Shown: positions 14,742 to 55,703 of the stretch, one piece after another
Layout: each line of letters starts with the position of its first letter
Position numbering within the stretch: the first letter of the stretch is position 1
NCBI GenBank assembly: GCA_041664445.1
Contig: JBAYKT010000007.1
Span: 4,360 to 68,359 of the forward strand
Length of the DNA stretch: 64,000 nt
Source of the DNA: Patescibacteria group bacterium
GTDB lineage: Bacteria > Patescibacteriota > Patescibacteriia > Patescibacteriales > UBA12465
Reading direction: 5' to 3'
Program-made: the position numbers and the translations under genes
Notes under the pieces: generated by a model
What the model saw: only the letters and a program-made list of their open reading frames with translations
Told to the model about the DNA's origin: nothing
Databases searched by the model: none

Positions 14742-14843
14742 GTTTTAATCTCCTTTTTACTTTAGTTTATACTGTTTTTATTTAATATTTTATTGTCAAC
14801 GAACAATAATTGCCATACACTCCTAGCTCTCATTGTTGAAAGA

Positions 14844-14872
14844 ATTATATCATATTTTTACAAGTTTGTCAA
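14844..14872 (-). promoter_or_regulatory. Consensus sigma70-type promoter (TTGACA-17 nt-TATAAT)
   Basis: The minus strand reads TTGACA aacttgtaaaaatatga TATAAT, a perfect match to both hexamers at optimal spacing. It lies about 100 nt upstream of the ATG at 14741. Confidence 0.6.
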
Positions 14873-14950
14873 TAAATGACAAGGCCTAAACATAAAAAAT
14901 GGCTAATATTAAAAAAATAAGGGGATATTATAAATCCCCTTTTTCCAATT

Positions 14951-15643
14951 TTAACTGTTAACCGCTTGCCCATTAAAATAAATGAGACATTTTCCAGTCT
15001 TAATGGCAAATTTTTTAAATGATTCCAATAATTTCGCTCTTATATTTATTGATTCTTTAAGTGCTTCTAAATAACTAGAAACGCTCAAGTCATAAATTAT
15101 AAAAAAATAGAAATTATCCAAATCATCAACAGAAGCGACGCTGCCCTCGCTCCTTTTGTGTACAATCTTTTTAAAACTCGGCTCAAAATTCAAAAGCTTA
15201 ACAATCACTTCTTCTGTCAAGACGCTAACAGAAAAAAATCCCTCAGACCATATCTCTGTATGAAATTCCCATACATCAGGTGGCTTAGAGGCTTCATCAT
15301 TTTGTTTATCTTCTGATGGAAAAAGATTGTCCCAACCAAAAACATCTGCCATAGAGTGGGCTAAATGGTTAATCCCAAATGTAGATAATTTTCTGTCAGT
15401 TTTGAATAAGAATCTAGCTCTTAACACAAGGGCCTTATCAATGTCATCGAAAATTGACTGCTGTTTTTTGTTAAATTTAATTATTCTTTTCAAACTGATA
15501 AGAGCCTGTTTAGCGGATAAAATATTCGCACTAGAAGAGTCGTTAATTTCCTCATACAAAACCGGCAATCTCTCTGATGTAGAATCAAAATCTCCTTTTT
15601 TGATATCAATCATCAATTTCTGCAATTCATCTAAATCAATCAT
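14951..15643 (-). CDS. Hypothetical acidic protein
   Basis: 230-aa ORF with no TM helix and no motif recognised. Confidence 0.5.
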   Translation of the reverse strand: MIDLDELQKLMIDIKKGDFDSTSERLPVLYEEINDSSSANILSAKQALISLKRIIKFNKKQQSIFDDIDKALVLRARFLFKTDRKLSTFGINHLAHSMADVFGWDNLFPSEDKQNDEASKPPDVWEFHTEIWSEGFFSVSVLTEEVIVKLLNFEPSFKKIVHKRSEGSVASVDDLDNFYFFIIYDLSVSSYLEALKESINIRAKLLESFKKFAIKTGKCLIYFNGQAVNS

Positions 15644-27702: not shown

Positions 27703-30084
27703 TTATCTAGAATTATTAGCCGGCTCAGTAGTTTCCGTCATAGTTGATGTAGTTGTGGCCGGTGTAGTCGTAGCCGGAGTTGTCTCTGGTATTGTAGTTG
27801 TCGCTGGCGTAGTCGTAGCCGGAGTTGTCTCTGGTATTGTAGTTGTCGCTGGCGTGGTTGTGGCTGGCGTTGTAGTTGCGCTTGTCTCTATAGTTGGCGT
27901 GGTTGTCGCCGTTCCGCCATCTTGAATAGTTGTTTCAGTCATCGAAGATTCAGAGCCTTCTGATTCTATCGGCATTTCTTCGGATCCAATCGAATCAGTG
28001 TTTTCCGGAACATCATCCGTGGTAATGATATAGTCCTCGACGCTCGGAGTCAATAACAAAGAACCAACTTCACTTAGATTATCAATTTTATTAATCTTTA
28101 AAAATTTATTGGAAAATGTCAATAAATTATTATCCGCTAGTGTGCTGTAACGGACGGTGTTGTCATAATAGCTAAATCCTCCCCAAGAATCAGCCGTTGA
28201 CATCAAGCCGCCACGAGAATGGTCAATCCTCCCTTTAAGATTTAGGACGCCACCATCAGTAGAAAAAACTAAAGCCCCGGAAAACGACAAACGACCGCTA
28301 TCATAAAGCGACACCGGCACCGAAACAATATTGCCGCTAATTGAATTATAAAGCGCTTCATAGTTATCCAGCGCCATAGAATTACTGCTCGCATCGCCGA
28401 TAACATAACCGCTAAGCTCTTTGGGGCTTTGTAAATCAGAAAAATCAAACAGTGATAATTTTAAACCAGTTTTTATTAATGATGATTCGGCTCCGGTTTC
28501 CAGATTACGACCAAAACTTAATAAAATATTCCCTTTATCATCTGCTTGGTAAATTTGCGCGGAAGAATTTGGTATTTGCACCGCCCCTAAAATTCCCGGC
28601 TTAGCGCTATCAGAAAAATCAGCGACATAGAGAGCGTCACTCACTTTGGCAGTTTTTAAATAAGCCCGATTACCCATAAATTTTACTGAATGGATTTTAG
28701 CGCCGGTAGCAATATTTTCCAATTTACCAAGCGACCGCAGGCCGTCGTCCAGCACATAAAGGTTATTGTATACTTTAGTAGTATCTTTAAAAAGTTTAGA
28801 CCACATTTCATTGCGTGAAGCTACTAATCTAACTTGGCCGTCGCTCTCACTCAAACCTGAGCCTTTAATAATCTGCCCGAAGATGTTCCCTTTGGCTTGG
28901 TAAACTGTTTTACCGGCATCAAAAATAATTTTATAGATTGTCGTTTTTTCAATTTCATTCATGTTGGCTTTTATTTTTTCAACCAAGGAGCCATCAACAG
29001 CGGCCTGCAAACTATCTTTCTCCGAACTCGATAACGAGGCGATGTGGGCGTTAACAATGGCGGCCACTTTAGCGACTTTCTCCGAAGAACTCAAAAGAGT
29101 TTCCGACAAGGCCTCAATTTCTTCAATTTGTTGCTGATCAGCGGCGCTTAAATTATTAAAAACTTGGTCACGCTTCAACTGATTTTGTAAATCATACTCG
29201 CTAATCGAGTTGGTATAAGTTAAATAAAGACTATTCGTCGGGGCATAAGCTTCTTGATTGATATCCAATAAATAGTCATTAACATTTAAGGCCTTGCTGG
29301 TATCAGATAAACTAATGGCCGCGACTGATAGAAAATAATAATTACTATAAGAATAATCAAAATAATATACTTCCGGAACCAAGCAATTATTAGTATCTTG
29401 GCAGTCGCCGCTGACAACTTGTCCGGCCTCAAAAATTCTCGGGGTTAAAGGTTCGTCTTCAATATAATTAATATTAGCGGCCGTCATCAAATAAGCGTGG
29501 CTGCCAATCAATTTCACCCCGGTATACTTACCTTCAAATGATAAGGACCTAACTTCTTTAGGGCTAGCCGGATCGGCAACATCATATATTTTGAAAAATA
29601 CATAATCGCTTTCTCGCTTGAAAGAGTTCCAGGCGGAACTAGATTTTATTTCTGTATCAACGCCATAAACGGCCACCCGCTGTCCGGAAACTAAAATCCC
29701 CGATGGCCTAGTCGCTAAAGAAATTTTACCGACAACTTTAGCTTGCGGCGCATATAAAGAATTGGTGATAAGAATATCGTTCTTAACTAAGGTATAAATA
29801 TAGTTTCCCTCAACCGCCAACACCTCTTCATTATCAGCCCCGGGTATTGTGTTTATTATTGAAGTGGCGGCCGAATGAGAAAACATAAAATCTTTCAAAA
29901 ATGCCACATCAGAAATTTTTTTAAGGTCACCGCTTGAACCGGCGCTCTTTTGATCATTGGGAGCATAGCTAACAAGCGGCGCATCTTGAATCACCCGGTT
30001 TTTTTCCCAAGGAAAAGTACAGGCGCTGACGGTAAGCGCTACCAAGGTTAGCAAAAAAATTGCTTTAAAAGTTGATTTTAACAT
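27703..30084 (-). CDS. Secreted beta-propeller domain lipoprotein with Thr/Pro-rich C-terminal tail
   Basis: Start placed at MLKSTFKAIFLLTLVALTVSAC (lipobox-like VSAC). The segment IHSVKFMGNRAYLKTAKVSDALYVADFSDSAKPGILGAVQIPNSSAQIY resembles the bacterial Beta_propel family. The tail is (TTPATTTIPE)-type repeats. Confidence 0.7.
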   Translation of the reverse strand: MLKSTFKAIFLLTLVALTVSACTFPWEKNRVIQDAPLVSYAPNDQKSAGSSGDLKKISDVAFLKDFMFSHSAATSIINTIPGADNEEVLAVEGNYIYTLVKNDILITNSLYAPQAKVVGKISLATRPSGILVSGQRVAVYGVDTEIKSSSAWNSFKRESDYVFFKIYDVADPASPKEVRSLSFEGKYTGVKLIGSHAYLMTAANINYIEDEPLTPRIFEAGQVVSGDCQDTNNCLVPEVYYFDYSYSNYYFLSVAAISLSDTSKALNVNDYLLDINQEAYAPTNSLYLTYTNSISEYDLQNQLKRDQVFNNLSAADQQQIEEIEALSETLLSSSEKVAKVAAIVNAHIASLSSSEKDSLQAAVDGSLVEKIKANMNEIEKTTIYKIIFDAGKTVYQAKGNIFGQIIKGSGLSESDGQVRLVASRNEMWSKLFKDTTKVYNNLYVLDDGLRSLGKLENIATGAKIHSVKFMGNRAYLKTAKVSDALYVADFSDSAKPGILGAVQIPNSSAQIYQADDKGNILLSFGRNLETGAESSLIKTGLKLSLFDFSDLQSPKELSGYVIGDASSNSMALDNYEALYNSISGNIVSVPVSLYDSGRLSFSGALVFSTDGGVLNLKGRIDHSRGGLMSTADSWGGFSYYDNTVRYSTLADNNLLTFSNKFLKINKIDNLSEVGSLLLTPSVEDYIITTDDVPENTDSIGSEEMPIESEGSESSMTETTIQDGGTATTTPTIETSATTTPATTTPATTTIPETTPATTTPATTTIPETTPATTTPATTTSTMTETTEPANNSR
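27764..27853 (-). repeat. 45-bp tandem direct repeat x2 (coding, Thr/Pro-rich tail)
   Basis: gtagtcgtagccggagttgtctctggtattgtagttgtcgctggc occurs at 27764-27808 and again exactly at 27809-27853, with degenerate copies on both sides. Confidence 0.9.
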
Positions 30085-30166
30085 ATGAATGTTAGAAAAA
30101 TAATCATGCACCAAGATTATAACATATTTATCGTTTATTTTCACGGGCAAAAACTAATAAGCGATA

Positions 30167-30859
30167 TTATTTGTGAATAAAAACTTGCAGGCCGACATCT
30201 ACCCGATCAAATAAATATTGTGCCGGTCCGACGCCCAAGCGAATGCAGCCGTGAGAAACTGCTTTTCCTAAATGATTTTCGCCCTCACGATAGCCGCTAG
30301 GCCAAACCGGAAGTTCATGAATGCCGATACGGCCACGGTCCAGACCTAGCCAAAAAGGCATCCAGAGACTATAAGTTTTAGACCACGCTTTTTTAATCCG
30401 ACTCACAACCGTAAAAGTCCCCGTGGGTGTCGGCATACTGGGCTTACCGGTAGAAACCGTAAATTCTTTCCAAGCTATTCCGGAAACAAAATAAGTAAGC
30501 TTTTGCTCTTTTAGAGATATATCTACTTTTTGAGTTAACTTCTTAGTGGAGGTGGAGAGCGGGTCAAAGGCGAAATCAATTTCTGCAAAATCAGAATAGC
30601 CGTCAGCATCGGTATCGGCTAAAAGTGGATTGGTCTTAAATTTAATTTCCAAATCATCACTCAAGCTATCCTTATCAACATCGCTCTCGGTAATTTTTAT
30701 CGACTCAACATTAAAAGGCGACCAACCATTTTTTATTTCTATGTCATCAGTATAACCATCGCCGTCGGAATCGACGGCTTCTTCGGCTTTTAGGGTTTTT
30801 GGCCCTAAGACAAAAAACGCCAGCAACAACAAATAAATTATAAATTTTCGATATTTCAT
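30167..30859 (-). CDS. L,D-transpeptidase (YkuD domain) with thrombospondin-type-3-like Ca-binding repeats
   Basis: Signal peptide MKYRKFIIYLLLLAFFVL. Repeats DSDGDGYTDDIE, DVDKDSLSDDLE and DTDADGYSDFAE. Catalytic HELP...SHGCIRL. The ATG overlaps the upstream stop (TAATG). Confidence 0.8.
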   Translation of the reverse strand: MKYRKFIIYLLLLAFFVLGPKTLKAEEAVDSDGDGYTDDIEIKNGWSPFNVESIKITESDVDKDSLSDDLEIKFKTNPLLADTDADGYSDFAEIDFAFDPLSTSTKKLTQKVDISLKEQKLTYFVSGIAWKEFTVSTGKPSMPTPTGTFTVVSRIKKAWSKTYSLWMPFWLGLDRGRIGIHELPVWPSGYREGENHLGKAVSHGCIRLGVGPAQYLFDRVDVGLQVFIHK

Positions 30860-32439
30860 TATTTTTGTTTTTTGATAATTGAATATTCGCAGCCGCAAAA
30901 TTTTTGACGATACATTTTTAATTCCTTGGCTAATTCTTGCGAGCGTCGATAAGCATCATCAGCTTGAAAATCTTCATCTAAAAATTTAATTCCCTTCTCG
31001 GCGGCTAACTTCCGCGACATCTTAACAATCGCTTCTTTATCTTTATAAGGACTAACGGTTAAGGAGGTGGCAAAAAAATCAAATTTTTTAGCGACCGCCA
31101 AATTAACGGTCGCGCGCAGGCGGTCTAAATAACAAATTTGGCAACGGGCGCCGCGCTCCGGGTCTGCTTCCCGCCCCTTTACCAACTCACACCAATTCTG
31201 ATGTTCATACGGAACGACGATTAACGGAATGGAAAATTTGGCCGCCATTAATTTTACATATTGTAGGCGTTTATCATATTCCTCTTGGGAAACTAAATTA
31301 GGGTTATAAAAAAACCAAGTTAAGCGGTAACGCGGCAACAAGCGGACGCTACTGATATAAGTTGCGCAGGGCGCACAGCAAATATGCAAGAGCAAAGATG
31401 GTTTCAATTTTTCCTGGCGCTTATCCAAAAATTGAAAAATAATAACAATCGCCAACATAATTAATAACAGTAGCAGCAACACCAAAAGCTTTCCTCGGCT
31501 CTGAAGAAATAAACCGCTTAAACCGAAAACTAGAGAGAAAAAATAAAATACCAAAACTGTTTGCCGCTGATTTAAACCTAAATTTAAAAGCCGATGATGA
31601 AGATGTTTATTGTCGGCAAAACGAAAAGGGTTTTTACCTTGAAAAAGACGCCTCATAATTGTCCAGGCGACATCTAAAATGGGGATACCCATGATTAATA
31701 AGGCAATCGCAATCTTTCCGCCGGAAATAATTGCCAAAACACCCAAGGCATAACCAAAAAATAAAGAACCGCCTTCGCCCAAGAAAATTTTAGCCGGGTA
31801 AAAATTAAAAATTAAAAATCCGAGCGCGGAACCCAATAAAATCACGGCCGCCAAGGCAATATCCGGTTGAAAATATTTAGTGGTCAGCGTAAATAAAAAA
31901 ATCACTAGTGCACCAATCGCTCCGACCCCGCTTACTAAACCATCAACTCCATCTAAAAGTTTAGTGGTGTACATCATTCCTAAAAGCCATAAAGCGATTA
32001 AAGCCGGTCCGACAATTACCAAATCTTTAAGATAAATAAAACCACCCAAAGGATTGGTAATTTTTTCAATTTCGACGCCGCCAATAACGATAGCTAAAAT
32101 GGCCAGTAACGGAAAAATGATTTGCCATTTGGCTGACAAATTATATTTGTCATCCAAAATACCGCCGCTAATAATGAGTAGCGCGCCAATAAAAAATCCC
32201 AGCAAATGCCGCCAGTCTAAATTTCCTGCTAAAAAACGGTCGGCATATAAAAATAAAATGGCAAAAAAAGACAAAAAAACAGCCACCCCGCCCAAGAGCG
32301 GTGTCGCCTTAACATGAATCTTGCGCTCCCCTGGTTTATCAACCAAATTAAAACGAAGCGCGATTTTTTTAACGCCCACTGTCAAAATCAGAGCTAAAAT
32401 AAAACTGGCTAAAAATGGCAGAATATAAGTTGAAAACAT
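30859..32439 (-). CDS. Fusion protein: polyprenyl-phosphate sugar-1-phosphate transferase (WecA/MraY, GT4 family) + QueH (DUF208) epoxyqueuosine reductase domain
   Basis: N-terminal ~340 aa: LVDKPGERKIHVKATPLLGG, DDKYNLS, NFYPAKIFLGEGGS and multiple TM helices. C-terminal ~185 aa: LLLHICCAPCATY, FFYNPNLVSQEEY, ERGARCQICY, MYRQKFCGCEYS. Single uninterrupted 526-codon frame. Confidence 0.8.
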   Translation of the reverse strand: MFSTYILPFLASFILALILTVGVKKIALRFNLVDKPGERKIHVKATPLLGGVAVFLSFFAILFLYADRFLAGNLDWRHLLGFFIGALLIISGGILDDKYNLSAKWQIIFPLLAILAIVIGGVEIEKITNPLGGFIYLKDLVIVGPALIALWLLGMMYTTKLLDGVDGLVSGVGAIGALVIFLFTLTTKYFQPDIALAAVILLGSALGFLIFNFYPAKIFLGEGGSLFFGYALGVLAIISGGKIAIALLIMGIPILDVAWTIMRRLFQGKNPFRFADNKHLHHRLLNLGLNQRQTVLVFYFFSLVFGLSGLFLQSRGKLLVLLLLLLIMLAIVIIFQFLDKRQEKLKPSLLLHICCAPCATYISSVRLLPRYRLTWFFYNPNLVSQEEYDKRLQYVKLMAAKFSIPLIVVPYEHQNWCELVKGREADPERGARCQICYLDRLRATVNLAVAKKFDFFATSLTVSPYKDKEAIVKMSRKLAAEKGIKFLDEDFQADDAYRRSQELAKELKMYRQKFCGCEYSIIKKQK

Positions 32440-32740: not shown

Positions 32741-32770
32741 AAAGCGCGCCCTAAACCAGCGCGTTTTTTT
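32741..32770. terminator. Bidirectional rho-independent terminator
   Basis: AAAGCGCGC ... GCGCGTTTTTTT, a GC stem with a CCTAAACCA loop, A-run upstream and T7 run downstream. Sits between convergent genes. Confidence 0.65.
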
Positions 32771-32773
32771 ATT

Positions 32774-35461
32774 TTATAATTCTGCGGCCTTCTCAATGAT
32801 TATTTCCGCTTTATTATTAATTACCACCTGGTCTCTTCTTTTTAACTCACCGGCTAAAATTTTATTAGCCACCGCATCTTCAACCCGTTCCTGCAACAAG
32901 CGACGTAAAGGACGCGCGCCAAATTTAGGATCATATCCGGCCTTGGCTAAAATAGTGACTCCGTCTTTATCGGCCTTTAGTCCGATTCCCTTGTCCGCCA
33001 GTATCTTTTTAATCTTCTTGAGCATCAAGGTCGTAATCGTAAAAATATTTTCCTCATTTAGAGGCTTAAAGACGATGATGCCGTCAAAACGATTAATAAG
33101 TTCCGGGCGCATATGCTCGCGCAACTGATTATCAATCAATTCCTGCTTAATAATATTTAGGCTGGTCTGAGCTTTAATCTGATCTTGAATAAAGATGGCG
33201 CCGATATTGGAAGTGGCGATAATGATTGATTCCGCAAAACTGATAGTTCTCCCCTGCCCGTCGGTCAATCGACCATCGTCCAACATTTGTAAAAATAAAT
33301 TTAAAATATCGGGATGAGCTTTTTCTACTTCATCCAACAAAACCAAAGAAAAAGGCTTTTTCCGAACAGCCTCCGTTAGATATCCTAAAGTCCCATCAAC
33401 ATCGCCAATCATTTTACGAACACTGTCTTGATTTTGATATTCACTCATATCCAAGCGAATCAGATAATCCTCACTACCAAAATAAATCGCCGAAACCGCT
33501 TTAGCGAGCTCAGTCTTACCGACACCGGTCGGGCCTAAGAATAAGAAGCTAGCAATCGGTCGCTTGCTATCTTTCATCGCTGCGCGCGCTCGGCGCAAAC
33601 TGGCTGAAACCGCCTTCACCGCCTCTTCTTGACCGACTAAACGTTCGTGAATTTCTACTTCTAAATTGAGCAATTTTTGACCCTCATCCGCGCTCACTTT
33701 ATTAACCGGGATGCCAGTCATCTCCGAAATAGCGGAAGCAATATCTTCTTTGGAACAAAAAGTTTTTTCCGGATTGTTTTTACTGGCTACAGCCGCAATC
33801 ATTGCTGCTTTTTCCAATAAGTCGATAGCCTTTGAAGGTAAAAACTTATCATGCAGATAACGCGCAGACATTTTCACGGCCTGTTCAATGGCACTATAGA
33901 CGATGTAGGTATCATACTTTGACTCCAAAAATCCGACGCGGCTTTCCAAAATTTGAATAGCGGCGTTAGTATCTGGCTCACTGATGCCAATCGTTGTCAT
34001 CACCTCTCCCAAAGATTTTTTCTCAATGTAGCGCGTATAGTTTTCAGCTGTGGCGGTCGCAATACATAGAATATGATTCTTAGATAAAGCTTCGGCTAAA
34101 ACTTCCGATAAGTCCAAACTTTCCTGACTGCCGGCGCTAATGCCAATTAAATTTTCAATATTATCAATAAATAAAATAACATTTCCAGAACGGTTAGCCT
34201 CATTAATACAATCCAATAGCCTTTCTTCGGCCACCGAAGGATTCGCTCCACTAACCAATTTGGAAACCTCCAGCTCCACCAAACGCTTATCTCTCATAAA
34301 ATCAGGCACATTTTCCTCAACCATCATCTGCGCGACACCACCGACAATTGTACTTTTACCAATACCAGTTGGCGCCACTAATAAAACGCCATTATGGCCG
34401 CCGGTAAAAATATCAAAAATTGCTTGAATTTCCTTATTGCGGCCGACGCATAAATCTAGATGCCCAAATTTAGCTTTTAAAGTTAAGTCAACGGCGAAGT
34501 GATCTAAAACCGGAGTAGCAATAGCGGTATAAGAACGATTCATCCCCGAACTGGGCTTAAAGAGCGCCAGCTGGCGATAAGCATGATAACGAGCGACTAA
34601 TAATTTATTGACCCTAAACCATTCCACGGCATTGGTAATTTTATCGGCATCAACTTCCAAATCATACATAATTTCCGCGAGCGCCGGGTCCCGTTCATAA
34701 CAAAATAAAATTATATTTAAAACATCAATGCTTTTTTGTTTCAAATTAAAGGCGTCTTGAAAAGCTAACATAAAAACTTCTTGAAGCCTATCGGAAATTT
34801 GATCATCGCCTACAGGATCTTTAGCGCTCTTAACTAACTGACGGTCAATCATCTCAATCATTTTTTTAGCATCAACATTTAGACGAATAAAGAGACTTTG
34901 AATCTCTTTGGTTCGAAGCGCCGCTCTAAAAAAATGAATAATGTCTATTTGTTTGCGATGTAATTTGCCGGCCAAAAGGAAAGCCTCTTCCAGGATTCTA
35001 TTTGTCTCGTCAGAAAAAGCGCGCGCGGCATTATAACGCTGTCTTGATTCGCGTTTAATCTTTTTATCTTCCCTAAAAAATCGATAATTTATTTTTTTAG
35101 CGCCGGCCACCGCCAAACTAAATTTATAAAAAAGAAATAAATCAAACCATAAAGACAGGAGAAAAAAAGCCACCAAAATATCCGGGCTGGACCAAAAAAA
35201 TAATATTTTTAAAGGATCGGCTTCCAAACTAGCGCGATTCAAAAATATCCAAGCCGCGAAAGCAAACCAGCCAGCAAAAATAATCAACCAAGAAAAAAAG
35301 CCTAAAATTTTATTAATCTGTTTTTCGGCCCGTTCCAAGGCGATTACCGATTTCTTAATTTTTTTATCCCAATATAAAAAGCGACCTAAAAACCAGGCCC
35401 CCCGCCCCTTAGCGGCGGTATCTTTCACAAATTCCAATTGTTCCCTGTTTCTCAAGTCCAT
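32774..35461 (-). CDS. Membrane-anchored Hsp100/Clp-family double AAA+ ATPase (no M-domain, degenerate D1)
   Basis: N-terminal ~120 aa with 2-3 TM helices (FFSWLIIFAGWFAFAAWIFL; ILVAFFLLSLWFDLFLFY). D1 has Walker A APTGIGKS and Walker B LFIDNIEN. D2 has [31 protein letters not shown] and GARPLRRLLQ. Confidence 0.8.
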   Translation of the reverse strand: MDLRNREQLEFVKDTAAKGRGAWFLGRFLYWDKKIKKSVIALERAEKQINKILGFFSWLIIFAGWFAFAAWIFLNRASLEADPLKILFFWSSPDILVAFFLLSLWFDLFLFYKFSLAVAGAKKINYRFFREDKKIKRESRQRYNAARAFSDETNRILEEAFLLAGKLHRKQIDIIHFFRAALRTKEIQSLFIRLNVDAKKMIEMIDRQLVKSAKDPVGDDQISDRLQEVFMLAFQDAFNLKQKSIDVLNIILFCYERDPALAEIMYDLEVDADKITNAVEWFRVNKLLVARYHAYRQLALFKPSSGMNRSYTAIATPVLDHFAVDLTLKAKFGHLDLCVGRNKEIQAIFDIFTGGHNGVLLVAPTGIGKSTIVGGVAQMMVEENVPDFMRDKRLVELEVSKLVSGANPSVAEERLLDCINEANRSGNVILFIDNIENLIGISAGSQESLDLSEVLAEALSKNHILCIATATAENYTRYIEKKSLGEVMTTIGISEPDTNAAIQILESRVGFLESKYDTYIVYSAIEQAVKMSARYLHDKFLPSKAIDLLEKAAMIAAVASKNNPEKTFCSKEDIASAISEMTGIPVNKVSADEGQKLLNLEVEIHERLVGQEEAVKAVSASLRRARAAMKDSKRPIASFLFLGPTGVGKTELAKAVSAIYFGSEDYLIRLDMSEYQNQDSVRKMIGDVDGTLGYLTEAVRKKPFSLVLLDEVEKAHPDILNLFLQMLDDGRLTDGQGRTISFAESIIIATSNIGAIFIQDQIKAQTSLNIIKQELIDNQLREHMRPELINRFDGIIVFKPLNEENIFTITTLMLKKIKKILADKGIGLKADKDGVTILAKAGYDPKFGARPLRRLLQERVEDAVANKILAGELKRRDQVVINNKAEIIIEKAAEL

Positions 35462-35463: not shown

Positions 35464-35832
35464 TTAAGCTTTAGCTTGAAAAAATAAAGCCACTAATATT
35501 AATAGCGGCAAAGCTAACCACAAAATCGCGCCGGCGATAACCAGCGCCAACCAAAAAAGTAAAGCGAGGCCACGGACGATAATTTGAATTAAGCGAATAA
35601 AAAAACTGATAACGCGTCCGGCGGCATCATACTGGCCATACATCGGTACAAAAATATTAGCGAGCCACACCCGAAAACCAAGGATTTTTTCTTGATTGCT
35701 AAAAAAAATCCATTCTTTCTTCAAGGTCTCCACAAAACCGACGCTATACCACCAAAAAGGAAAATAAATAATACTACCCAGGGTTTGAAAAATTATTTTT
35801 AGTCCGTAAGTAAAAAAATTATGTGATTGCAT
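35464..35832 (-). CDS. Small polytopic membrane protein, first gene of the operon with the membrane Clp ATPase
   Basis: 122-aa ORF with 3-4 TM helices. Its stop lies 2 nt before the ATPase start. Confidence 0.55.
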   Translation of the reverse strand: MQSHNFFTYGLKIIFQTLGSIIYFPFWWYSVGFVETLKKEWIFFSNQEKILGFRVWLANIFVPMYGQYDAAGRVISFFIRLIQIIVRGLALLFWLALVIAGAILWLALPLLILVALFFQAKA

Positions 35833-36032: not shown

Positions 36033-38672
36033 ATGTTTAATAAATTTACCGATAAATCCCAGGAAGTAATTATTAATTCCCAGGCAATCGCCTCTAATTA
36101 CGGCCAACCAAATATTGAAGCGGTTCATATTCTGCTAGCGCTTCTAGAGCAAAATGAGGGCTTAGTAAAACCGATTCTAGAAAAAATGAAAATTGACCCG
36201 GAGTTAATGGAAGAAAAAATTATCAAAACTATTAAAACTCTGCCCCAAAGCCGAATAAACCAAACGCCCGGACCGGTGCAAGCCGTATCCGGAACCGCCG
36301 AAACGGCCGCCGTTTTAGAAAGAGCGCAAAAAGAAGCAGATGGCATGAGTGATGAGTTCATCTCCACCGAACATATTTTACTCGCGCTTATCGGCGTCTC
36401 TTCCCCGGCCCAAAGAATTTTGCTGGATTTTAAAGTTGAGTACCAAGAAGTTAAAAATATTTTAAAGGAATTACGCGGCTCACAAACCATTACCGATCCT
36501 TTTCCGGAAAATAAATTCCGCGTCTTAGAAAAATATACCACCAATCTTACCGAATTAGCTCGCCAAGAAAAATTAGATCCAGTTATCGGACGTGATATGG
36601 AAATCCGCCGCATTATGCAAGTTCTGCTGCGTCGCACTAAAAACAATCCGGTACTTATCGGCGAAGCCGGAACCGGCAAAACCGCGGTGGTAGAAGGTCT
36701 AGCGCAAAGAATCGTGTCTGGCGATGTTCCAGAAAATTTAAAAAATAAAGAAATTATTGCTTTGGATTTAGGCTCAATCGTTGCTGGCGCTAAGTTTCGC
36801 GGCGAATTTGAAGACCGCTTAAAAGCAATTTTAAAAGAAGTTAAATCGCAAAATGGCCGCTTAATCTTATTTATTGATGAACTGCATACTTTAATCGGTG
36901 CCGGCGCCTCTGAAGGCTCCATGGATGCTTCTAACATGTTAAAACCGGCTCTCGCCCGTGGTGAACTGCGAACTATCGGCGCCACCACCACTAAAGAATA
37001 CCAAAAATATATTGAAAAAGATGCTGCTCTCGAAAGACGCTTCCAGCCGATTTATGTTTCCGAACCCAGCATTGAAGATACTATCAGCATGCTCCGTGGC
37101 CTCAAAGAAAAATATGAGGTTCATCATGGTGTTAGAATTACCGATAATGCCTTGATTGCCGCCGCCAAGCTGTCGCATCGCTATATCAGCGACCGTTTTT
37201 TACCGGACAAAGCTGTAGATTTAATTGATGAGGCGACTTCTTCCCTACGTATGGAAATTGATTCCATGCCGGATGAACTCGACCAATTAAAGCGTAAAAT
37301 AAACCAACTAGAGCTTAACAAAGCGGGTCTCATGACGACCGATAAAAAATCATCAAAAATCCGTGCTATTAATCAAGAACTTGCTAAAATTAAAGAAAAA
37401 TCAACACAATTAGAACTTCACTGGAACAACGAAAAAAATATTATTTCTCAAATCAGAACTTCCAAAAAAGAAATGGAAGACTTAAAAATCAAAGCTGAAA
37501 TTGCTCAAAGACAAGGAGCTGACTTAACTGAAGTTGCTAAAATAAAATATGGCCTAATTCCTGAGTTGGAACACGGAATAGACAACTTGCAAGAAGAGCT
37601 GTTGAAAATTCAAAAAAAGGGACAACGAATTCTTAAAGAAGAGGTGGATGAGGAAGATATTGCTAAAGTAGTTGCTCGCTGGACCGGAATTCCGGTCAAC
37701 AAAATGTTGCAGGATGAAATTAAAAAATTAAGCGATGCCGAAAAAGAACTCAATCAAGAAGTAGTCGGGCAAGAAGAAGCCATCAAGGCGGTTGCTAACG
37801 CCTTAAGAAGATCGCGTGCCGGCATCAACGAAGAAAAACGCCCCATTGGTTCTTTTCTATTTGTCGGACCGACCGGTGTCGGCAAAACCGAACTCGCCAA
37901 AACCTTGGCCAAGTTTATGTTTGACGACGAAAAATCATTAGTTCGTTTAGATATGAGCGAATTCATGGAAAAGCATTCGGTTGCTAAACTGATTGGCTCG
38001 CCTCCGGGTTATGTCGGCCATGACGATGGCGGCCAACTAACCGACAAAGTCCGCCGCCACCCTTACAGCGTTGTCTTGTTTGATGAAATCGAAAAGGCAC
38101 ATCCGGATATGTTTAACATCCTGCTGCAAATCTTAGACGATGGCCGGCTGACTGATTCCAAGGGACGAATGATTAATTTCAAAAACACCATCGTCATTAT
38201 GACCTCCAACCTCGGCAACGAAGTAATTAAACATTATTCCATCGGTTTTAATGACGAAAGCGATAAAAAAGAGGCCTCCAAGCTACGTGAAGGAGAAATG
38301 AAAGAAAAAATAGATAAGATTCTTAAAGAAAATTTCAAACTGGAATTTTTAAATAGAATCGATGAGATTGTTCTCTTCCATAGCTTGTCGCCGGAAGCGC
38401 TAGAGAAAATAGTTGATTTAGAATTGAATAAAGTTGAGAAACGACTGGCCAATAAAAATATCAGCGTTAAAGTCGGCCCGAAAGTCAAAAAAATGTTGGC
38501 GCAAAAAGGTTATGACATCACTTACGGTGCCCGACCGTTAAAGCGCATCATCCAAAATTTGATTTTAGATGAACTAGCGCTAGAAATTATTGAAGGTAAA
38601 ATCAAAGAAGGCGCCAAAGTAAAAATAGACTTGGGGGAACCGGAAAAAATAATTATTAAAGCCTTAAAATAA
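36033..38672 (+). CDS. clpB: Chaperone ClpB (Hsp100 disaggregase with full-length M-domain)
   Basis: Clp_N repeats, [25 protein letters not shown]1 [15 protein letters not shown], a ~130-aa coiled-coil M-domain, D2 [31 protein letters not shown]. Confidence 0.93.
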
Positions 38673-43440: not shown

Positions 43441-43512
43441 GGTCTCTTCGTCTAACGGCTAGGACGCCAGGTTCTCATCCTGGTAATAGGGGTTCGATTC
43501 CCCTAGGGACTA
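43441..43512 (+). tRNA. tRNA-Glu (anticodon CTC), integration target
   Basis: GGTCTCT-TC-GTCT-AACGGCTA-GGAC-G-CCAGG-TTCTCAT-CCTGG-TAAT-AGGGG-TTCGATT-CCCCT-AGGGACT-A. The acceptor stem has two G-U pairs. Confidence 0.85.
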
Positions 43513-43513
43513 C
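43468..43513 (+). repeat. attL core (within the intact tRNA-Glu)
   Basis: caggttctcatcctggtaataggggttcgattcccctagggactac is identical to 58546-58591. Confidence 0.9.
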
Positions 43514-43543
43514 AGAATAAGAAATGGGCTAAAAGCCTGTTTT

Positions 43544-44659
43544 TTATTGGGTTTTTTGAAGTATTTTAGTTTCCAGTAAATCAGAAACTAAAATATTTTT
43601 ATCATTAATTATCGGAGCGGTGACTAAATGTTGACCAAAATTATTAGCCAAGGTCTCAACCGCACCCCTTACAGCTTGAGCGGTTAGGTGAGAATAGCGC
43701 ATTGTTGTCTTAATGTCAGCATGTCCCAGTAACTCTTTAATTAGAACAATAGAAACCCCATTCTGAGCTAAGTGAGAGGCAAAGGTATGTCTTAAGGTGT
43801 GCCAACCTATTTTACGCAACCCAGCTCGGTTACAGGCTCGGTGCAACCAGTTTAAACATAAAACTGGATTAAGATGATTGCCGTCTTTATCAAAGGCTAT
43901 CCCATGCTTTTTGGCCCTTAAAATAATAAGCTCTTTAACATCTCCCAATAATGGGACATATCTAATCTTGTTACTCTTAGGACTTCCCAAATGCCCCCTA
44001 GCGATTGATTTCTGAACAGTTAATAGATTGCCCTTAAAATCAATATCATTCCATTCTAAGGCAATTAACTCTCCAAAACGAAGCCCAGTTTTAAGACCAA
44101 AAAGAATCATCTCTTTTAACATCCCGTCAGAATTATCTAATAATAACTGACATTCCTCTGAACTAAGAAAATCAAATTTTTGCGGCTGAACCTTTAGAAG
44201 TTTAACTTTAGGAGTATTTTGAATTATTCCCCATTCTTGAGCAGTATTAAAACATTTGTTTAGAACAATTAAATGATTGTTAACACTTTTATTAGACTGG
44301 CCTGACTGTATTTTATTAGCCTTATAGTTTTCAATATCTAGGTTACTAATTTTATCTAATTGTTTTTGGCCAAAGAATGGATTTAAATGGGCCCTAAGTA
44401 AACTTTCTTTATTTAGAATTTCTGAATATTTATTATTGTTCTTAACATACACTTCAAGCCAATTATCAGAGAATTCTTTAAAAGTTGGGACTGCCTTTTG
44501 CTCTTCTACTATAGGCTCTCCGCGTGCTAGCTTCTGTCGCAATAAAGCCTCATAAGCCTTAGCCCCGGCCTGAGTATTCTGCGGGCTAAGTTTACGATAT
44601 CTTTTATTTTGGCAATAAATACTTACCCAGTATTTATTCTTATTTTTATAAACGCTCAT
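43544..44659 (-). CDS. int: Tyrosine recombinase / phage-type integrase
   Basis: N-terminal SAM-like domain. Catalytic domain with GLRFGEL (Arg), HTLRHTFASHL (H-x-x-R) and LLGHADIKTTMRYSHL (His/Tyr). Confidence 0.92.
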   Translation of the reverse strand: MSVYKNKNKYWVSIYCQNKRYRKLSPQNTQAGAKAYEALLRQKLARGEPIVEEQKAVPTFKEFSDNWLEVYVKNNNKYSEILNKESLLRAHLNPFFGQKQLDKISNLDIENYKANKIQSGQSNKSVNNHLIVLNKCFNTAQEWGIIQNTPKVKLLKVQPQKFDFLSSEECQLLLDNSDGMLKEMILFGLKTGLRFGELIALEWNDIDFKGNLLTVQKSIARGHLGSPKSNKIRYVPLLGDVKELIILRAKKHGIAFDKDGNHLNPVLCLNWLHRACNRAGLRKIGWHTLRHTFASHLAQNGVSIVLIKELLGHADIKTTMRYSHLTAQAVRGAVETLANNFGQHLVTAPIINDKNILVSDLLETKILQKTQ

Positions 44660-44667
44660 ATAATTTA

Positions 44668-44865
44668 TTAGACGACTGCATCAATACGAGCATTATCTAT
44701 ATACTTTTCAATATCAGATATTTTAAATCTCAAACTGCCACTTATTTTATAAAATGGTATTTTGCGTTTTTCTATTAATCTATACACCGAAGGCTTGGAC
44801 ATTCTTAAAATTGAAGCCAGCTCATCAGGTGTTATTAAGTTGTTCGTATTGGAAACGTCGTTCAT
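44668..44865 (-). CDS. xis: Excisionase-family HTH DNA-binding protein
   Basis: 65 aa. LITPDELASILRMSKPSVYRLIEKRKIPFYKISGSLRFKISDIEKYI is the HTH_17/excisionase pattern. Located directly upstream of int. Confidence 0.8.
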   Translation of the reverse strand: MNDVSNTNNLITPDELASILRMSKPSVYRLIEKRKIPFYKISGSLRFKISDIEKYIDNARIDAVV

Positions 44866-44966
44866 TTAGTTATTAAGGAGCGATATAAGGCGAGTTAATT
44901 AAAACTCGTAGACAATATCGATCCTAACATATTTTTATGAGAATTTACATATTTTTGTTTTCCAGC

Positions 44967-45410
44967 TTAGTATTGACTTAGCTGTTTTTGGTCTGAATCA
45001 CCGTGTTTTAAAAAGGTATTTTTAAAATATTCATTAACATAAGCATTGCGAGCCGCGTATTCTGATGCTGGGTCAATTGTCTGATTATCATTAAACATCC
45101 CTAAAGACTTACCTATCGCAATAATGGCTTGGAGTTTGGTGCTGTCTGATTTAGCTTCCTCGGCTAGTTGTTTTAATTTTGCTAAAACATAGTTGGCATC
45201 TAGCTCTAAAACAGCAAATCTCTCCTTTAGATACTCCCGGATCTTAGCGTTCCTGAGCAATCTTGAAGCGTTAACGGCTGCCGTATTATCATCAAGTTCT
45301 TGACCATACACGGCCTTATAAGCAATCGTCCCATTTCGATTGGAGATTATATACTGCTCGGCAAATATGATTTGCTTATCAACTATTTTTGGTTTATTAA
45401 TCTGATTCAT
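44967..45410 (-). CDS. Terminase small subunit-like protein (P27-family-like)
   Basis: 147 aa. KQIIFAEQYIISNRNGTIAYKAVYG...AAVNASRLLRNAKIREYL matches the N-terminal HTH pattern of small terminases. Confidence 0.55.
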   Translation of the reverse strand: MNQINKPKIVDKQIIFAEQYIISNRNGTIAYKAVYGQELDDNTAAVNASRLLRNAKIREYLKERFAVLELDANYVLAKLKQLAEEAKSDSTKLQAIIAIGKSLGMFNDNQTIDPASEYAARNAYVNEYFKNTFLKHGDSDQKQLSQY

Positions 45411-45413
45411 AAC

Positions 45414-45599
45414 CTTGTTATTTGTTAACTGCTTGTTAAATATTCTTTAACAAATAAATTTGTTTAATATTAGTTAATTACGATTTCAGGTTATTAAAAT
45501 TCCCCAGAAGAAGGTGATATATCTTGGTTTACTAATAAACCAAGAATATTCTTCTTGTTAACTTGTTAACCTATATATAGATATTAACAAGTAACAAGC
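45414..45599. repeat. Iteron-like repeat cluster ((C/T)TTGTTAA(C) in both orientations) plus a 9-bp-stem hairpin
   Basis: Direct copies of TTGTTA(A) start at 45415, 45422, 45433, 45555 and 45563; TTGTTTAA starts at 45461. Inverted copies lie at 45447-45454 and 45583-45599 (two adjacent). Hairpin CTTGGTTTA-CTAA-TAAACCAAG at 45523-45544. Confidence 0.6.
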
Positions 45600-45601
45600 T
45601 G

Positions 45602-46696
45602 CTAAGAGTTTATAAAATAGTATTTAGCCTTGCCTTGTTGGCTGACATCAATTTTATTCTCTGAAACTAATTCTTTTAGGGCAATTCTGATATTACTAAT
45701 ACCCGCATTTGATTTTTCTTCTAAGTCCTTAACAGTGGCTCCCTGGCTAGAACTCAAGGATTCCATAATATAAATTTTAGCCTCTTCAACCTTTTTCCCT
45801 TTCTCCTCAACTTCTCCCAAATATTCCCAATTTATCTGGTCCGTTTCTTGGTTATTAAAAACTTTAAATGATATCTTACCGTCCAAACGAAGTGAACTTC
45901 TGGCTTTCTCCTGGCTAACGGTAACCTCTAAAACTTTATTACCTAATTCATCTTTATAATTTTTACTATCCAAAAGAAGATGAGAGGAAACTTTGGCAAT
46001 TATTTCCGAACTCCCACGGCTAGATGATTGGCTCAATTTTTCGCCCTTTTGTGGCTTGCGATGATGATGAAGGTAAATCACGGAGACTTTAGTTAGCCTA
46101 ATTAATTTTAGTATCTGCTTATTTACAGCCTTCATCGCGCCAGAGTCATTTTCTTCCTTGTCATGAATCTCTGTAAAAGTATCAAAAATAATCACCTTAT
46201 ACTCATTTTTAACTATTAAAACAACTAAGCGAGCAAAATCTGAGGGGTCCGTTATCATAAACCTTTGATCAATAATGTAATTTATGGGAATATCCTTATC
46301 TATTAACTTTTTGAATCTTGTTACGATTTCATTCTTATTCATCTCTTGATCAATAATAAGAATACGGCTTTGCTCGACTTCATATTTGTTAAATAGCGGT
46401 AATCCTGCAGCTATATGATATGCCAGAATAAGGGCAAACAAACTTTTACCTTTACCGGAGTCAGCCGTAATTGAAGTAACCGCTTCTTTAGGAATTAATG
46501 GATTAATTACAAAAAACTCTGGCTGAACTTCATATGCTAATAATTCTTGGCAAGTAGAAATTACGAGTTCATTTTCGCTTTCTCCTAAATTATTATCTTC
46601 TTTATCAATATCAACCGATTCATCGAAACCTTCTTGCTCAAGAATATTCTCACCTTTAGGCACTTCATAATTATTTAAATTGGTAATTATTTCCAT
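45602..46696 (-). CDS. RepA-like RecA-fold ATPase (AAA_25 type) with C-terminal winged-helix domain
   Basis: Walker A ADSGKGKSLFAL, Walker B RILIIDQE, VIYLHHHRKP, and a C-terminal wHTH-like ATVKDLEEKSNAGISNIRIALKELVSENKI. Confidence 0.7.
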   Translation of the reverse strand: MEIITNLNNYEVPKGENILEQEGFDESVDIDKEDNNLGESENELVISTCQELLAYEVQPEFFVINPLIPKEAVTSITADSGKGKSLFALILAYHIAAGLPLFNKYEVEQSRILIIDQEMNKNEIVTRFKKLIDKDIPINYIIDQRFMITDPSDFARLVVLIVKNEYKVIIFDTFTEIHDKEENDSGAMKAVNKQILKLIRLTKVSVIYLHHHRKPQKGEKLSQSSSRGSSEIIAKVSSHLLLDSKNYKDELGNKVLEVTVSQEKARSSLRLDGKISFKVFNNQETDQINWEYLGEVEEKGKKVEEAKIYIMESLSSSQGATVKDLEEKSNAGISNIRIALKELVSENKIDVSQQGKAKYYFINS

Positions 46697-46756
46697 ATAA
46701 GTCTCTAATCACGCGGCAGAGAACGGATTAATACCGCCCTCTGCCGAAAAATTATT

Positions 46757-47014
46757 TTACTCCTCGGTACCATAGAATATGCTCGTCACCTCTCTGTCTG
46801 GTAAATCTAAAAATTTTCCACAAATAATATCATCCAAATGGCTCCGAAGTGATCCAAATGAATTTTCTGAAACAAACCACTTTTTCTCCCAAAACATTTT
46901 TGGAAGTTTTTCCTTTAGTACTGAGAAAAGCTTATTATTTGCTTTAATGACTTCTTTAGTTGCATCTCCTATAATTTTCCACTCCTCTAAACTTAGCTCT
47001 ATATTTTTATTCAT
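46757..47014 (-). CDS. Hypothetical small protein (island)
   Basis: 85-aa ORF upstream of the RepA-like gene on the same strand. Confidence 0.45.
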   Translation of the reverse strand: MNKNIELSLEEWKIIGDATKEVIKANNKLFSVLKEKLPKMFWEKKWFVSENSFGSLRSHLDDIICGKFLDLPDREVTSIFYGTEE

Positions 47015-47330
47015 ATATTTATGAAATTAATAATTAATTTGTTATTCGAGAGGCTTCGCAACCTATCGATAGACCGCGAAGCCTAGTTGTCTCGAATGGA
47101 AACATTTTGTTTCCTTTGTATAGACCTCGTCAGCTAAATAGATATTTCCAAAATGAGTTAAATTTCTAAAATACACAGAACTTTAGAGATTCAGCATTCA
47201 TTCCAGAAATTATAAATTCATGGGCCTCGATATGTAATCCTATCCTTCATAAAGTAATTTAGCTCGTTTATAAACAATTCAATAATTTCGTTAGTCTTCA
47301 TACTATATATGCACGAAATTTCGCTTAAAT

Positions 47331-47365
47331 AAAAAAAATCCACTAATTTTAAATGAATTAGTGGA
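47331..47365 (-). terminator. Rho-independent terminator of the 48867-47398 operon
   Basis: TCCACTAATT (47339-47348) pairs with AATTAGTGGA (47356-47365). A T8 run follows on the minus strand (plus-strand A-run 47331-47338). Confidence 0.75.
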
Positions 47366-47397
47366 ATTATACTCGAAAAAACGCAGGCGAAATTTCG

Positions 47398-48228
47398 TCA
47401 ATGATTATTTAAATAAGTCTTTGGGTTTATTTCTGATATATTTCTATCTTGCCAGGATTCTCTAAATTCAGGAGATGGAGAAAGTTTTATTTTTATCTGA
47501 TATGCATCGTTATCTTTAAGATATATTATAGGGCTATCTTTAAGGCCAAAATATTTCCTTAATCTTTTTGATAAATCCTGTATATCCTTTTTAAATGTTT
47601 CTTTCTTAGTTTTATTACCAGAAAAAGAATTTAATTTTATACAGCCATTCTGAGTAGAAAACAAAATAAGGGCCCCCCAGCTTTTTACATAAGCCATTTT
47701 TTGAGAACTATCCTGTCTAGTATCAGCAAAACCGAGCTTATCATAGCTAGAGTCTTCTTCTTTGCCATCTACCGTTAACTTAACATCGCACTTATTTTTA
47801 AACGTAATACTTACATTTTCCCATTCTTTTGTTAATTCTTTCACATAAGCCGCTCTGTCTTTAATCGAATATTTATTATAAATATTATAAAAATCTTTAT
47901 TAACATTAACCGAGTAGCGATGCATCGGGGTTGCATATCCCTCGTCAGGTCTTGGCCAATTATCACACTCGACATCAAGGCTTATATCTCTTGAATTTTC
48001 TTTTATAATATGAATAATTTTTTCATCAAATAGCTTTTTAAGCGCAAGACAAAAAACATGAGTAGTTATTTTACACATTTCTATATCACCCATGCTCAAT
48101 GCGATGTCAACATGATCCAATCCCTTGTCGTCATTCAAAAAATGACGCTTGTTAGCATCAAGCTTTATTTTTATAATATTTAAAACAGATAGAACCTGCT
48201 TATCAAAATTAAAATCCATATTTGGCAA
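47398..48228 (-). CDS. Hypothetical protein (island orphan, 276 aa)
   Basis: Long ORF, last gene of a tightly spaced 3-gene operon. No motif recognised. Confidence 0.55.
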   Translation of the reverse strand: MPNMDFNFDKQVLSVLNIIKIKLDANKRHFLNDDKGLDHVDIALSMGDIEMCKITTHVFCLALKKLFDEKIIHIIKENSRDISLDVECDNWPRPDEGYATPMHRYSVNVNKDFYNIYNKYSIKDRAAYVKELTKEWENVSITFKNKCDVKLTVDGKEEDSSYDKLGFADTRQDSSQKMAYVKSWGALILFSTQNGCIKLNSFSGNKTKKETFKKDIQDLSKRLRKYFGLKDSPIIYLKDNDAYQIKIKLSPSPEFRESWQDRNISEINPKTYLNNH

Positions 48229-48232
48229 CTAA

Positions 48233-48535
48233 CTAACCTTCATTTCTATGTTTAATAGAATAGATTAATAAAGCTCCACATAGAAATATTATAGCATCAT
48301 ATGTCCAAATTTTCCTATACAGCGATCGGCTTGAGTTTGCGTCCATTTGAGTAGCCATATTAATCATTGAGACTGTGGCTGCTCCAGGAGTTTCAGATAC
48401 TATAGAAAAAACCGTTGGTTTTTTACTATATTCGGCTCTCAAATAGCTTGTTATGAAAATCATCGATGTAAAAACTAATAACGTGATAATAATTAATAAA
48501 TATTGAAAAATTATTCTTTTAATTTTTTTAAACAT
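48233..48535 (-). CDS. Small membrane protein, 2 TM (island orphan)
   Basis: 100 aa. TM helices IIFQYLLIIITLLVFTSMIFITS and AIIFLCGALLIYSI. Confidence 0.5.
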   Translation of the reverse strand: MFKKIKRIIFQYLLIIITLLVFTSMIFITSYLRAEYSKKPTVFSIVSETPGAATVSMINMATQMDANSSRSLYRKIWTYDAIIFLCGALLIYSIKHRNEG

Positions 48536-48561
48536 ATTTTTATAAATAGAGTCTTTTATTG

Positions 48562-48867
48562 TTAATTTTTAAGTAATAGCTGATCAAGGCCAATAGAGTC
48601 TTCTATTTTCTTCTTTAATTCTTTCGCCAAATTCTCAGGAACTAATAAATCTAACTCTCGCTCATAGTAAATGCTTAGAACAAAACGGGCATTACTAACA
48701 TTGGCAATATTCATCCACTCAATCTCACCGTCTTTATCTGTTATATTTTTGCCATTACAAAGAAACGTTTCAATAAAACTCTCGACATCCTTTTGAATAG
48801 CCTCATTATACGTTAGGCCTTTTCCATTTAGCCCATCAAATTTAGTTATTGGTATGTATCTAACCAT
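48562..48867 (-). CDS. Hypothetical protein (island orphan, 101 aa)
   Basis: First gene of the 3-gene operon. No motif recognised. Confidence 0.5.
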   Translation of the reverse strand: MVRYIPITKFDGLNGKGLTYNEAIQKDVESFIETFLCNGKNITDKDGEIEWMNIANVSNARFVLSIYYERELDLLVPENLAKELKKKIEDSIGLDQLLLKN

Positions 48868-49111
48868 AAAAATAAATATTAAAATAACACAAAAGGTCCC
48901 CCGACACGATTAACACACCCTTTCGGATATGCGCCTAGATAGCGAAAATCGGTCAGAAGACCATCTCTGCTATCTAGGACTTTAAACCATGCCTTAATAA
49001 ATTAAGGTTTAGGTTAATTCAATTGTTCTTTTATTATCCAATAAAATTGGGTAATAGTCAATTTTTATTAAATATATTTAATTTTAAAAATCTTTATTAT
49101 ATAATATATTT

Positions 49112-55702: not shown

Positions 55703-55703
55703 A

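Follow-up and report, generated by a model that had tools for sequence, protein, structure and literature searches.

We analysed a 64,000-nucleotide (64 kb) window of contig JBAYKT010000007.1 from a Patescibacteria group bacterium (assembly GCA_041664445.1), and coordinates without a locus name refer to this whole stretch. On its minus strand lies an open reading frame (ORF) in which a membrane glycosyl-1-phosphate transferase of the GT4 (PNPT) type is fused to QueH, the iron-sulfur (Fe-S) enzyme that reduces epoxyqueuosine (oQ) to queuosine (Q) in tRNA. A first-pass annotation made from the sequence had proposed a single frame of 526 codons with these two domains, and both claims are borne out. 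The frame runs from ATG to TAA and contains all the motifs named at the time, i.e. DKPGERKIH, DDKYNLS, NFYPAKIFLGEGGS, DKRQEKLKPS, HICCAPC, RCQICY and FCGCEYS. Pfam recognizes Glycos_transf_4 (PF00953) at residues 80-239 with 94.8 bits against a cutoff of 27, and a near-complete QueH profile (PF02677, positions 1-173 of 175) at residues 349-521 with 191.2 bits against a gathering score of 23.5. The domain junction at ~31399-31425 agrees with the earlier estimate of about 31400-31450. As our data indicate, this GT4-QueH fusion is a genuine, lineage-specific architecture of a Falkowbacteria-centred clade of the Parcubacteria/Patescibacteria within the Candidate Phyla Radiation (CPR).

The fusion gene is followed by a YkuD L,D-transpeptidase gene (Table 1), and the TAATG overlap between the two, also claimed before, is real by sequence reading. 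The ATG of the YkuD gene and the TAA stop of the fusion have one base in common (...AAA TAA TG AAA...), with KKQK and the stop in one frame and then MKYRKF..., from the signal peptide of the YkuD protein, in the other. In the relative CP066698.1, the gene at the YkuD position is called from the final base of the fusion stop codon. A terminator-like hairpin lies after the ClpB-like gene upstream, which suggests that the fusion gene may be the start of its own transcription unit.

Table 1. Features of the fusion locus and of the putative mobile element in the 64 kb window
Feature	Position	Strand	Evidence or remark
Fusion ORF, ATG to TAA, 526 codons	30859..32439	minus	TAA at 30859-30861
PNPT membrane domain (Glycos_transf_4, WecA/TagO-like), residues 1-338	31426..32439	minus	Pfam, NCBIfam, hydropathy, AlphaFold2, Foldseek
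DDKYNLS motif (D96, D97), predicted cytoplasmic loop	32134..32154	minus	sequence read
Junction DKRQEKLKP, residues 339-347	31399..31425	minus	AlphaFold2 secondary structure
QueH (DUF208) domain, residues 348-526, predicted cytoplasmic	30862..31398	minus	Pfam, phmmer, Foldseek
HICCAPC motif (C354, C355, C358)	31366..31386	minus	alignment to T. maritima QueH
RCQICY motif (R432, C433, C436)	31129..31146	minus	alignment, 76 homologues
FCGCEYS motif (C515, C517)	30880..30900	minus	alignment, 76 homologues
YkuD L,D-transpeptidase gene (signal peptide, TSP3 repeats, YkuD), downstream of the fusion	30167..30859	minus	
Terminator-like hairpin 3' of the upstream ClpB-like gene	32745..32763	minus	consensus scan only
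Tyrosine integrase	43544-44659		mobile element
Terminase small subunit	44967-45410		mobile element
AAA_25 ATPase	45602-46696		mobile element
LOOT sRNA	48910-49015		mobile element
Type I restriction-modification system hsdS/M/R	52669-58073		mobile element

The same architecture, which the first-pass annotation had suggested looking for, was found in more than 120 protein clusters of the Falkowbacteria-centred clade. All of the 120 best-scoring protein clusters at 90% identity carry both PF00953 and PF02677, with 61-91% identity to the window's protein and lengths of about 500-545 aa, and their sources are NCBI, JGI, ENA and Logan assemblies, some with contigs as long as 0.8-1.0 Mb. The 977 kb Candidatus Falkowbacteria chromosome record CP066698.1 is collinear with the window and encodes a 526-aa orthologue with 90% identity; fusion proteins of equal length with 90-94% identity occur in the independent assemblies CP066698.1, JAEHGX010000013.1 and a Logan SRR12113407 contig. 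We also carried out a species-level scan with one genome per GTDB species, giving 80 loci, about 60 of which encode a full-length in-frame fusion with 51-94% identity. The possibility that the fusion is an assembly or sequencing artefact, i.e. a frameshift or a chimeric join on this contig only, is virtually nil in our estimate. Some relatives do have split GT4 and queH genes, and changing one base can convert one state into the other, but independent assemblies, made in different studies and with different technologies, contain in-frame fusions of equal length, the linker keeps its form, and the GC content across the domain junction has no compositional break. We therefore reject this explanation, and with it the earlier concerns that a sequencing error made the fusion or that relatives would lack it.

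The fusion clade is real but compact, since clustering the library at 50% identity leaves 2-3 representatives of the complete fusion, the next matches being standalone GT4 proteins of ~350 aa. The informative record titles at the fusion loci are mostly Falkowbacteria, Patescibacteria or Parcubacteria. Dozens of TPA_asm records of metagenome-assembled genomes with the Patescibacteria-specific gene block are titled 'uncultured Gammaproteobacteria bacterium' (L009, L011, L013-L015 and others), and isolated titles at block-bearing loci read Planctomycetota (L024) and Bacillota (L039). These three names look wrong.

The N-terminal domain resembles WecA but cannot be assigned as WecA. Its best NCBIfam model is WecA (TIGR02380), with positions 4-330 of 346 aligned and a score of 127.7 bits against an equivalog cutoff of 326.05, and MraY (TIGR00445) scores 67.1 bits against a cutoff of 192.05. 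The assignment as a strict WecA or MraY was rejected, the scores being under both curated equivalog cutoffs. The domain shares with WecA, TagO (TarO) and MraY the DD, DGxDG and HxHH motifs in predicted cytoplasmic loops and an MraY/DPAGT1-like fold, with Foldseek target TM-scores of 0.80 to MraY (6OYZ) and 0.65-0.67 to human DPAGT1, and differs from them in falling below the equivalog cutoffs and in its extra 180-residue Fe-S domain. An Asp-Asp pair of the D96/D97 type is the metal-binding motif of PNPT enzymes. Residues D96, D97, D163, D166, H279 and H281 are invariant in all of the 76 fusion proteins compared.

Eleven transmembrane (TM) helices are predicted in this domain, at residues 3-23, 46-66, 77-95, 104-124, 131-157, 165-185, 192-211, 219-239, 241-262, 293-313 and 317-338. 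Based on hydropathy, the basic loops with DKPGERKIH, DDKYNLS, LLDGVDG, NFYPAKIFLGEGGS and HLHHR lie on one side of the membrane, which they share with the C-terminus. The predicted topology thus has the N-terminus outside and the C-terminus inside. WecA itself has an N-out/C-in arrangement of 11 TM helices.

The C-terminus of the GT4 transferase is a recurrent, fusion-prone site, since a DUF192 or GT2 domain also sits at the QueH-equivalent position in related CPR proteins. Seven CPR WecA-like GT4 proteins (P0154, P0167, P0178, P0182, P0209, P0229 and P0231) have a C-terminal DUF192/COG1430 domain, and P0162 has a GT2 glycosyltransferase domain instead. The two DUF192 proteins inspected, P0154 and P0167, have an extra hydrophobic segment ahead of DUF192, and this domain is probably extracytoplasmic.

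QueH is a cobalamin-independent oQ reductase, and the C-terminal domain is similar over its full length to the QueH of Thermotoga maritima, with 31-33% identity and a common fold (7LC5, 7LC7, 9DEU). A phmmer comparison with 7LC5 gives an end-to-end alignment with E 4e-24. We predicted the structure of the fusion protein using AlphaFold2 with 76 homologues (mean pLDDT 85.7, pTM 0.68). The QueH part of the model matches the T. maritima structures in Foldseek with target TM-scores of 0.85-0.89 and a root mean square deviation (RMSD) of 1.7-2.2 A, the values for 7LC5 being 0.88 and 1.7 A over 177 columns. The motifs CCAPx, RCxxC, CGC, YNPN, SPxK and YRQ are shared. C9 of T. maritima QueH aligns with C354 and D13 with C358, and C9S and D13N mutant structures exist. 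There are two differences: the position of D13 is a Cys here, as in the other CPR QueH sequences examined, and QueH as otherwise known is soluble and free-standing, with about 180 aa, whereas here it is covalently attached to the final TM helix of a polytopic membrane enzyme.

The seven Cys residues of the QueH domain (C354, C355, C358, C433, C436, C515 and C517) are invariant in 76 of 76 fusion proteins, and so are N379, N381, E387, R391, R432, K466, Y510 and Q512; the mean column identity of these proteins is 61%. Since the signature residues of both domains are invariant across this set, the GT4 and QueH domains both look catalytically competent, and the strict conservation of the QueH signature argues for QueH chemistry.

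The two domains appear to be closely joined. In the AlphaFold2 model, residues 339-347 are a cytoplasmic extension of the TM11 helix (317-345), and only ~2 non-helical residues separate it from the first QueH strand (348-353), an arrangement with no long flexible tether. In relatives with split genes, its counterpart is the end of GT4 together with the start of QueH. The sidedness of QueH can also be judged from several relatives that encode GT4, QueH, TSP3 and YkuD in single ORFs of 731-808 aa. Exactly one hydrophobic segment, the former YkuD signal peptide, lies between QueH and YkuD in these proteins. YkuD acts on peptidoglycan outside the membrane. QueH is predicted to be on the cytoplasmic face of the membrane, since YkuD works outside and one hydrophobic segment separates the two; this location fits an Fe-S enzyme with a tRNA substrate.

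The gene neighbourhood points to the origin of the fusion. The conserved block consists of p122, a ClpB-like gene, GT4(-QueH), optional YkuD and beta-propeller genes, p254, PDZ and PGK; it is long and also has the housekeeping genes ClpB, PGK and enolase. The nearest standalone GT4 protein, P0124, has 60% identity and is the positional orthologue of the fusion GT4. It stops a few residues past TM11, a VanZ gene comes next, and queH is absent nearby. In the Parcubacteria loci L087-L089 and L092, GT4, VanZ and QueH are three genes in the block of ClpB-like, beta-propeller and PDZ genes, with a 20-nt overlap of VanZ and queH in L087; L086 has the same order GT4, VanZ, QueH with an ATGA overlap.

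Using the divergent standalone QueH of L086 as the query, we found many standalone QueH proteins and ~50 VanZ-QueH fusions among the 120 best matches. The VanZ-QueH fusions have 293-319 aa and belong to the window's CPR group; in L090 such a fusion has no GT4 gene adjoining. Like the GT4-QueH proteins, they (e.g. P0317, P0319 and P0333) have QueH at the C-terminus, come from the same syntenic block, and have a short and basic linker, the junction (...IYWLDFSELRRPKLLLQVCCIGC...) matching the form of the GT4-QueH junction (...FQFLDKRQEKLKPSLLLHICCAPC...). They differ in that the anchor is the small VanZ protein, which is gone from the locus in the window's clade. The three-gene order GT4, VanZ, queH is likely the ancestral state, because the separate genes stand in the common block and the junction forms are alike, and QueH was therefore fused to whichever membrane protein lay upstream. 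The first-pass annotation foresaw neither this sister fusion nor the three-gene state. Its placement of the gene in an envelope operon holds in part, as the YkuD gene is found 3' of the fusion in many genomes but not in all.

The architecture is also labile. About 50-60 of the species-level loci are fused, and six have GT4, QueH and YkuD in one ORF. Eight species have adjacent split GT4 and queH genes, each with its own ATG, joined by an ATGA overlap or parted by a 9-62 nt spacer and often in different frames. In L015 and L018, the gap between the GT4 and queH ORFs is no more than one stop codon in frame plus a few further codons, and hence a single substitution toggles this state between fused and split. 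Ten species-level loci have no queH; GT4 is directly followed by YkuD in L072 and by the beta-propeller gene in L074 and L083, and these three unfused loci are nested within the fused clade.

We built neighbour-joining (NJ) trees for the GT4 domain and for the concatenated ClpB-like and GT4 proteins (1,218 columns, 72 taxa, 100 bootstraps). In these trees the lineages at the base lack the fusion and most members of one large clade have it, with split and absent states nested inside this clade. Fitch parsimony over the 100 bootstrap trees requires at least 8 architecture changes among the 72 species in every replicate, with at least 4 switches between fused and unfused, at least 4 gains or losses of queH, and exactly 2 independent YkuD extensions. 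The covalent link between GT4 and QueH is thus dispensable on short evolutionary timescales, given that split and absent states are nested within the fused clade.

Our analysis suggests, with a probability of roughly 0.62, that the protein is a single chain with two enzymes that act independently, and that QueH is anchored at the cytoplasmic side of the membrane as a by-product of tightly packed genes. The N-terminal 11-TM domain would be a WecA/TagO-type polyprenyl-phosphate hexosamine-1-phosphate transferase that acts at the cytoplasmic face and primes a lipid-linked glycan of the envelope. The intact QueH domain would be held at the inner face by the ~9-residue linker continuing TM11, and most likely still reduces oQ to Q in tRNA, judging from its conserved residues. 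In the older neighbourhood the GT4, VanZ and queH genes lie tightly packed and at times overlap; loss of VanZ and of a stop codon may then have merged the GT4 and queH ORFs. VanZ would have become joined to QueH in sister lineages by the same process, which would also have added YkuD to the C-terminus of the fusion at least twice. We infer that both activities are retained and that they function independently.

The first-pass annotation had offered three meanings for the fusion, i.e. a membrane-tethered QueH, a Rosetta-stone link between pathways, or a redox role of the domain in envelope synthesis. It had also called for a topology prediction, which puts QueH in the cytoplasm. The first meaning is favoured because of the 11 TM helices with a cytoplasmic C-terminus, the one TM segment ahead of YkuD, and the intact QueH signature. 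The other two are weakened because the fusion is labile and derives from the older GT4, VanZ, queH neighbourhood. Its statement that the queuosine and glycan-priming pathways are unrelated still holds, and our data do not support an obligate connection of queuosine with envelope synthesis.

Several points weigh against the interpretation as two independent enzymes. The topology of GT4-QueH rests on prediction, and the very short linker would put the Fe-S site near the membrane. The phylogeny was derived by NJ from only two genes, which are linked. The finding of both VanZ and GT4 as anchors, together with the old adjacency of the genes, could mean selection for membrane location instead of a neutral collapse. 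Furthermore, tblastn with the Tgt of Z. mobilis (matching PDB 1ENU) and the QueA of E. coli (matching 1YY3 and 1VKY) found no tgt or queA in 1.54 Mb comprising the window and 86 loci, nearly all of one neighbourhood, with about 6% of a genome covered, and hence uninformative genome-wide. QueA is 'depleted' in CPR overall (PMC6744442), and the need for an oQ reductase in the fusion clade is therefore not proven.

These last two points touch on another explanation, namely a relic or repurposed QueH domain: with no queuosine pathway in the cell (queA and/or tgt missing), it would be a structural or regulatory cytoplasmic module of the transferase, or be decaying. No tgt, queA or other Q genes were detected by Pfam among about 55 ORFs of the window, no preQ1 riboswitch was found there by Rfam scan, and neither tgt nor queA adjoins the standalone or VanZ-fused QueH genes in the loci examined. 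Such an absence of Q-pathway genes from the sampled loci would be expected of a relic, as would the several losses of queH within the clade and the small number of CPR genomes with QueA (426, against 1614 with Tgt, 1645 with PheRS-alpha and 1985 with GyrB; PMC6744442, Supplementary Data 1), these being CPR-wide counts and not given per lineage. The same numbers indicate that Tgt is near-universal in CPR and that a subset of these bacteria have the last steps of queuosine synthesis. We consider a relic or repurposed domain very unlikely, since the seven Cys and the other family-invariant residues are fixed in 76 proteins that differ at ~40% of positions, which points to strong purifying selection on the catalytic and cofactor residues of QueH, and since the domain has its full length and its native fold is predicted with confidence.

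A functional coupling of the two domains is a further alternative, which seems rather unlikely to us. It could be a Rosetta-stone link or an adaptive tethering, serving precursor salvage, access to a membrane electron donor, or an epoxide or other reduction of a lipid-linked envelope intermediate that GT4 makes. The two parts do occur as separate proteins elsewhere, as the Rosetta-stone argument demands (split loci, three-gene loci and the standalone P0124). The adjacency of GT4, VanZ and queH is conserved in divergent Parcubacteria, and most members of the group have QueH fused to a membrane protein, with two different anchors and a short basic linker in both cases. But the same GT4 occurs with a free-standing queH or no adjacent queH in close relatives, VanZ-QueH lacks a neighbouring GT4 in L090, and the adjacency sits in a long block of unrelated housekeeping genes (ClpB, PGK and enolase). 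The same GT4 C-terminus also takes DUF192 and GT2 domains, and the QueH signature does not depart from that of bona fide QueH proteins.

Adaptive tethering in particular, with QueH reducing an epoxy-queuosine or epoxy-queuine precursor during its import from the host or using a membrane-bound electron donor at the inner face, is doubtful, and would represent a new mode of queuosine salvage in episymbiotic bacteria. Small-molecule binding is possible, as the listed QueH structures include those with free queuosine (9DEU) and GMP (7LC7), and CPR bacteria rely on scavenging. Fusions of Q-pathway enzymes with transporters are also known and have served to predict salvage functions, i.e. bTGT-QPTR and bTGT-MFS and, as a further known fusion, bTGT-MMPL (PMC11130926). 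These resemble GT4-QueH in joining a soluble Q-pathway enzyme to a polytopic membrane protein. However, the membrane partner in these fusions is a transporter for which a role in salvage is plausible, while GT4 is not a transporter but a transferase that primes glycans and is not known to be connected to queuosine.

Our literature search, which did not extend to the primary QueH papers, found no paper on GT4-QueH or VanZ-QueH fusions, and none that relevantly connects QueH with glycosyltransferase fusions, VanZ, WecA, CPR or Patescibacteria. The GT4-QueH architecture is already present in public databases, where NCBI and JGI label the proteins 'QueH' or 'GlcNAc-1-P transferase'; such one-sided labels cause one of the two activities to be overlooked, and the finding is hence of value for annotation. 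The series of loci, with three genes, two alternative two-domain fusions, a three-part fusion and reversions, is unusually complete. It illustrates how overlapping genes in streamlined genomes are fused and split by single mutations, and cautions that not every gene fusion is a functional link. If QueH is active, a tRNA-modifying Fe-S enzyme would normally be working tethered to the membrane, and this could be a clue to how host-dependent bacteria acquire or complete queuosine.

A number of further observations concern the neighbouring genes. The window has two divergent ClpB-like AAA+ genes at 32774-35461 (minus) and 36033-38672 (plus), and the one adjoining the fusion gene encodes hydrophobic segments in its N-terminal region. 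It is preceded by p122 (35464-35832, minus), a hydrophobic protein of 122 aa with no family match, and the order p122, ClpB-like, GT4 is kept in the entire clade. The beta-propeller (PF09826) protein of 815 aa (27703-30150, minus) has a C-terminal Thr/Pro-rich tandem repeat (TTPATTTPATTTIPE...), which matches repeated hairpin-like DNA at 27773-27835 and is probably a cell-surface stalk or O-glycosylation region. In one Parcubacteria lineage, in L087 (7583-8629, plus) and also in L088 and L089, a radical-SAM/SPASM protein is encoded between the ClpB-like gene and GT4; the L087 protein has AhbD/NirJ-like best matches, all well under the cutoffs, and QueE was rejected as its identity, as it is SPASM/AhbD-like. 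Near the unfused GT4 orthologue of L003, a 398-aa protein (1791-2987, plus) consists of a WecG/TagA-type glycosyltransferase fused to a NUDIX hydrolase, a further enzyme-enzyme fusion among CPR envelope-glycan genes; a WecG/TagA-like gene at this place fits a TagO/TagA-type pathway.

Elsewhere in the window, a small gene for a TrbC/VirB2-type pilin-like protein of type IV secretion systems (12104-12469, minus) adjoins a tRNA-Tyr (11960-12044), and after it come several ORFs (12562-15643) that match no family. The region 43441-58073 is likely an integrated mobile element at a tRNA-Glu (43441-43513), the components of which are given in Table 1. A second fusion of a membrane protein with a soluble enzyme is encoded at 4289-5584 (minus), where an EamA-family transporter with two EamA stretches has a C-terminal riboflavin kinase (Flavokinase) in a protein of 431 aa, plausibly a riboflavin importer coupled to its kinase.

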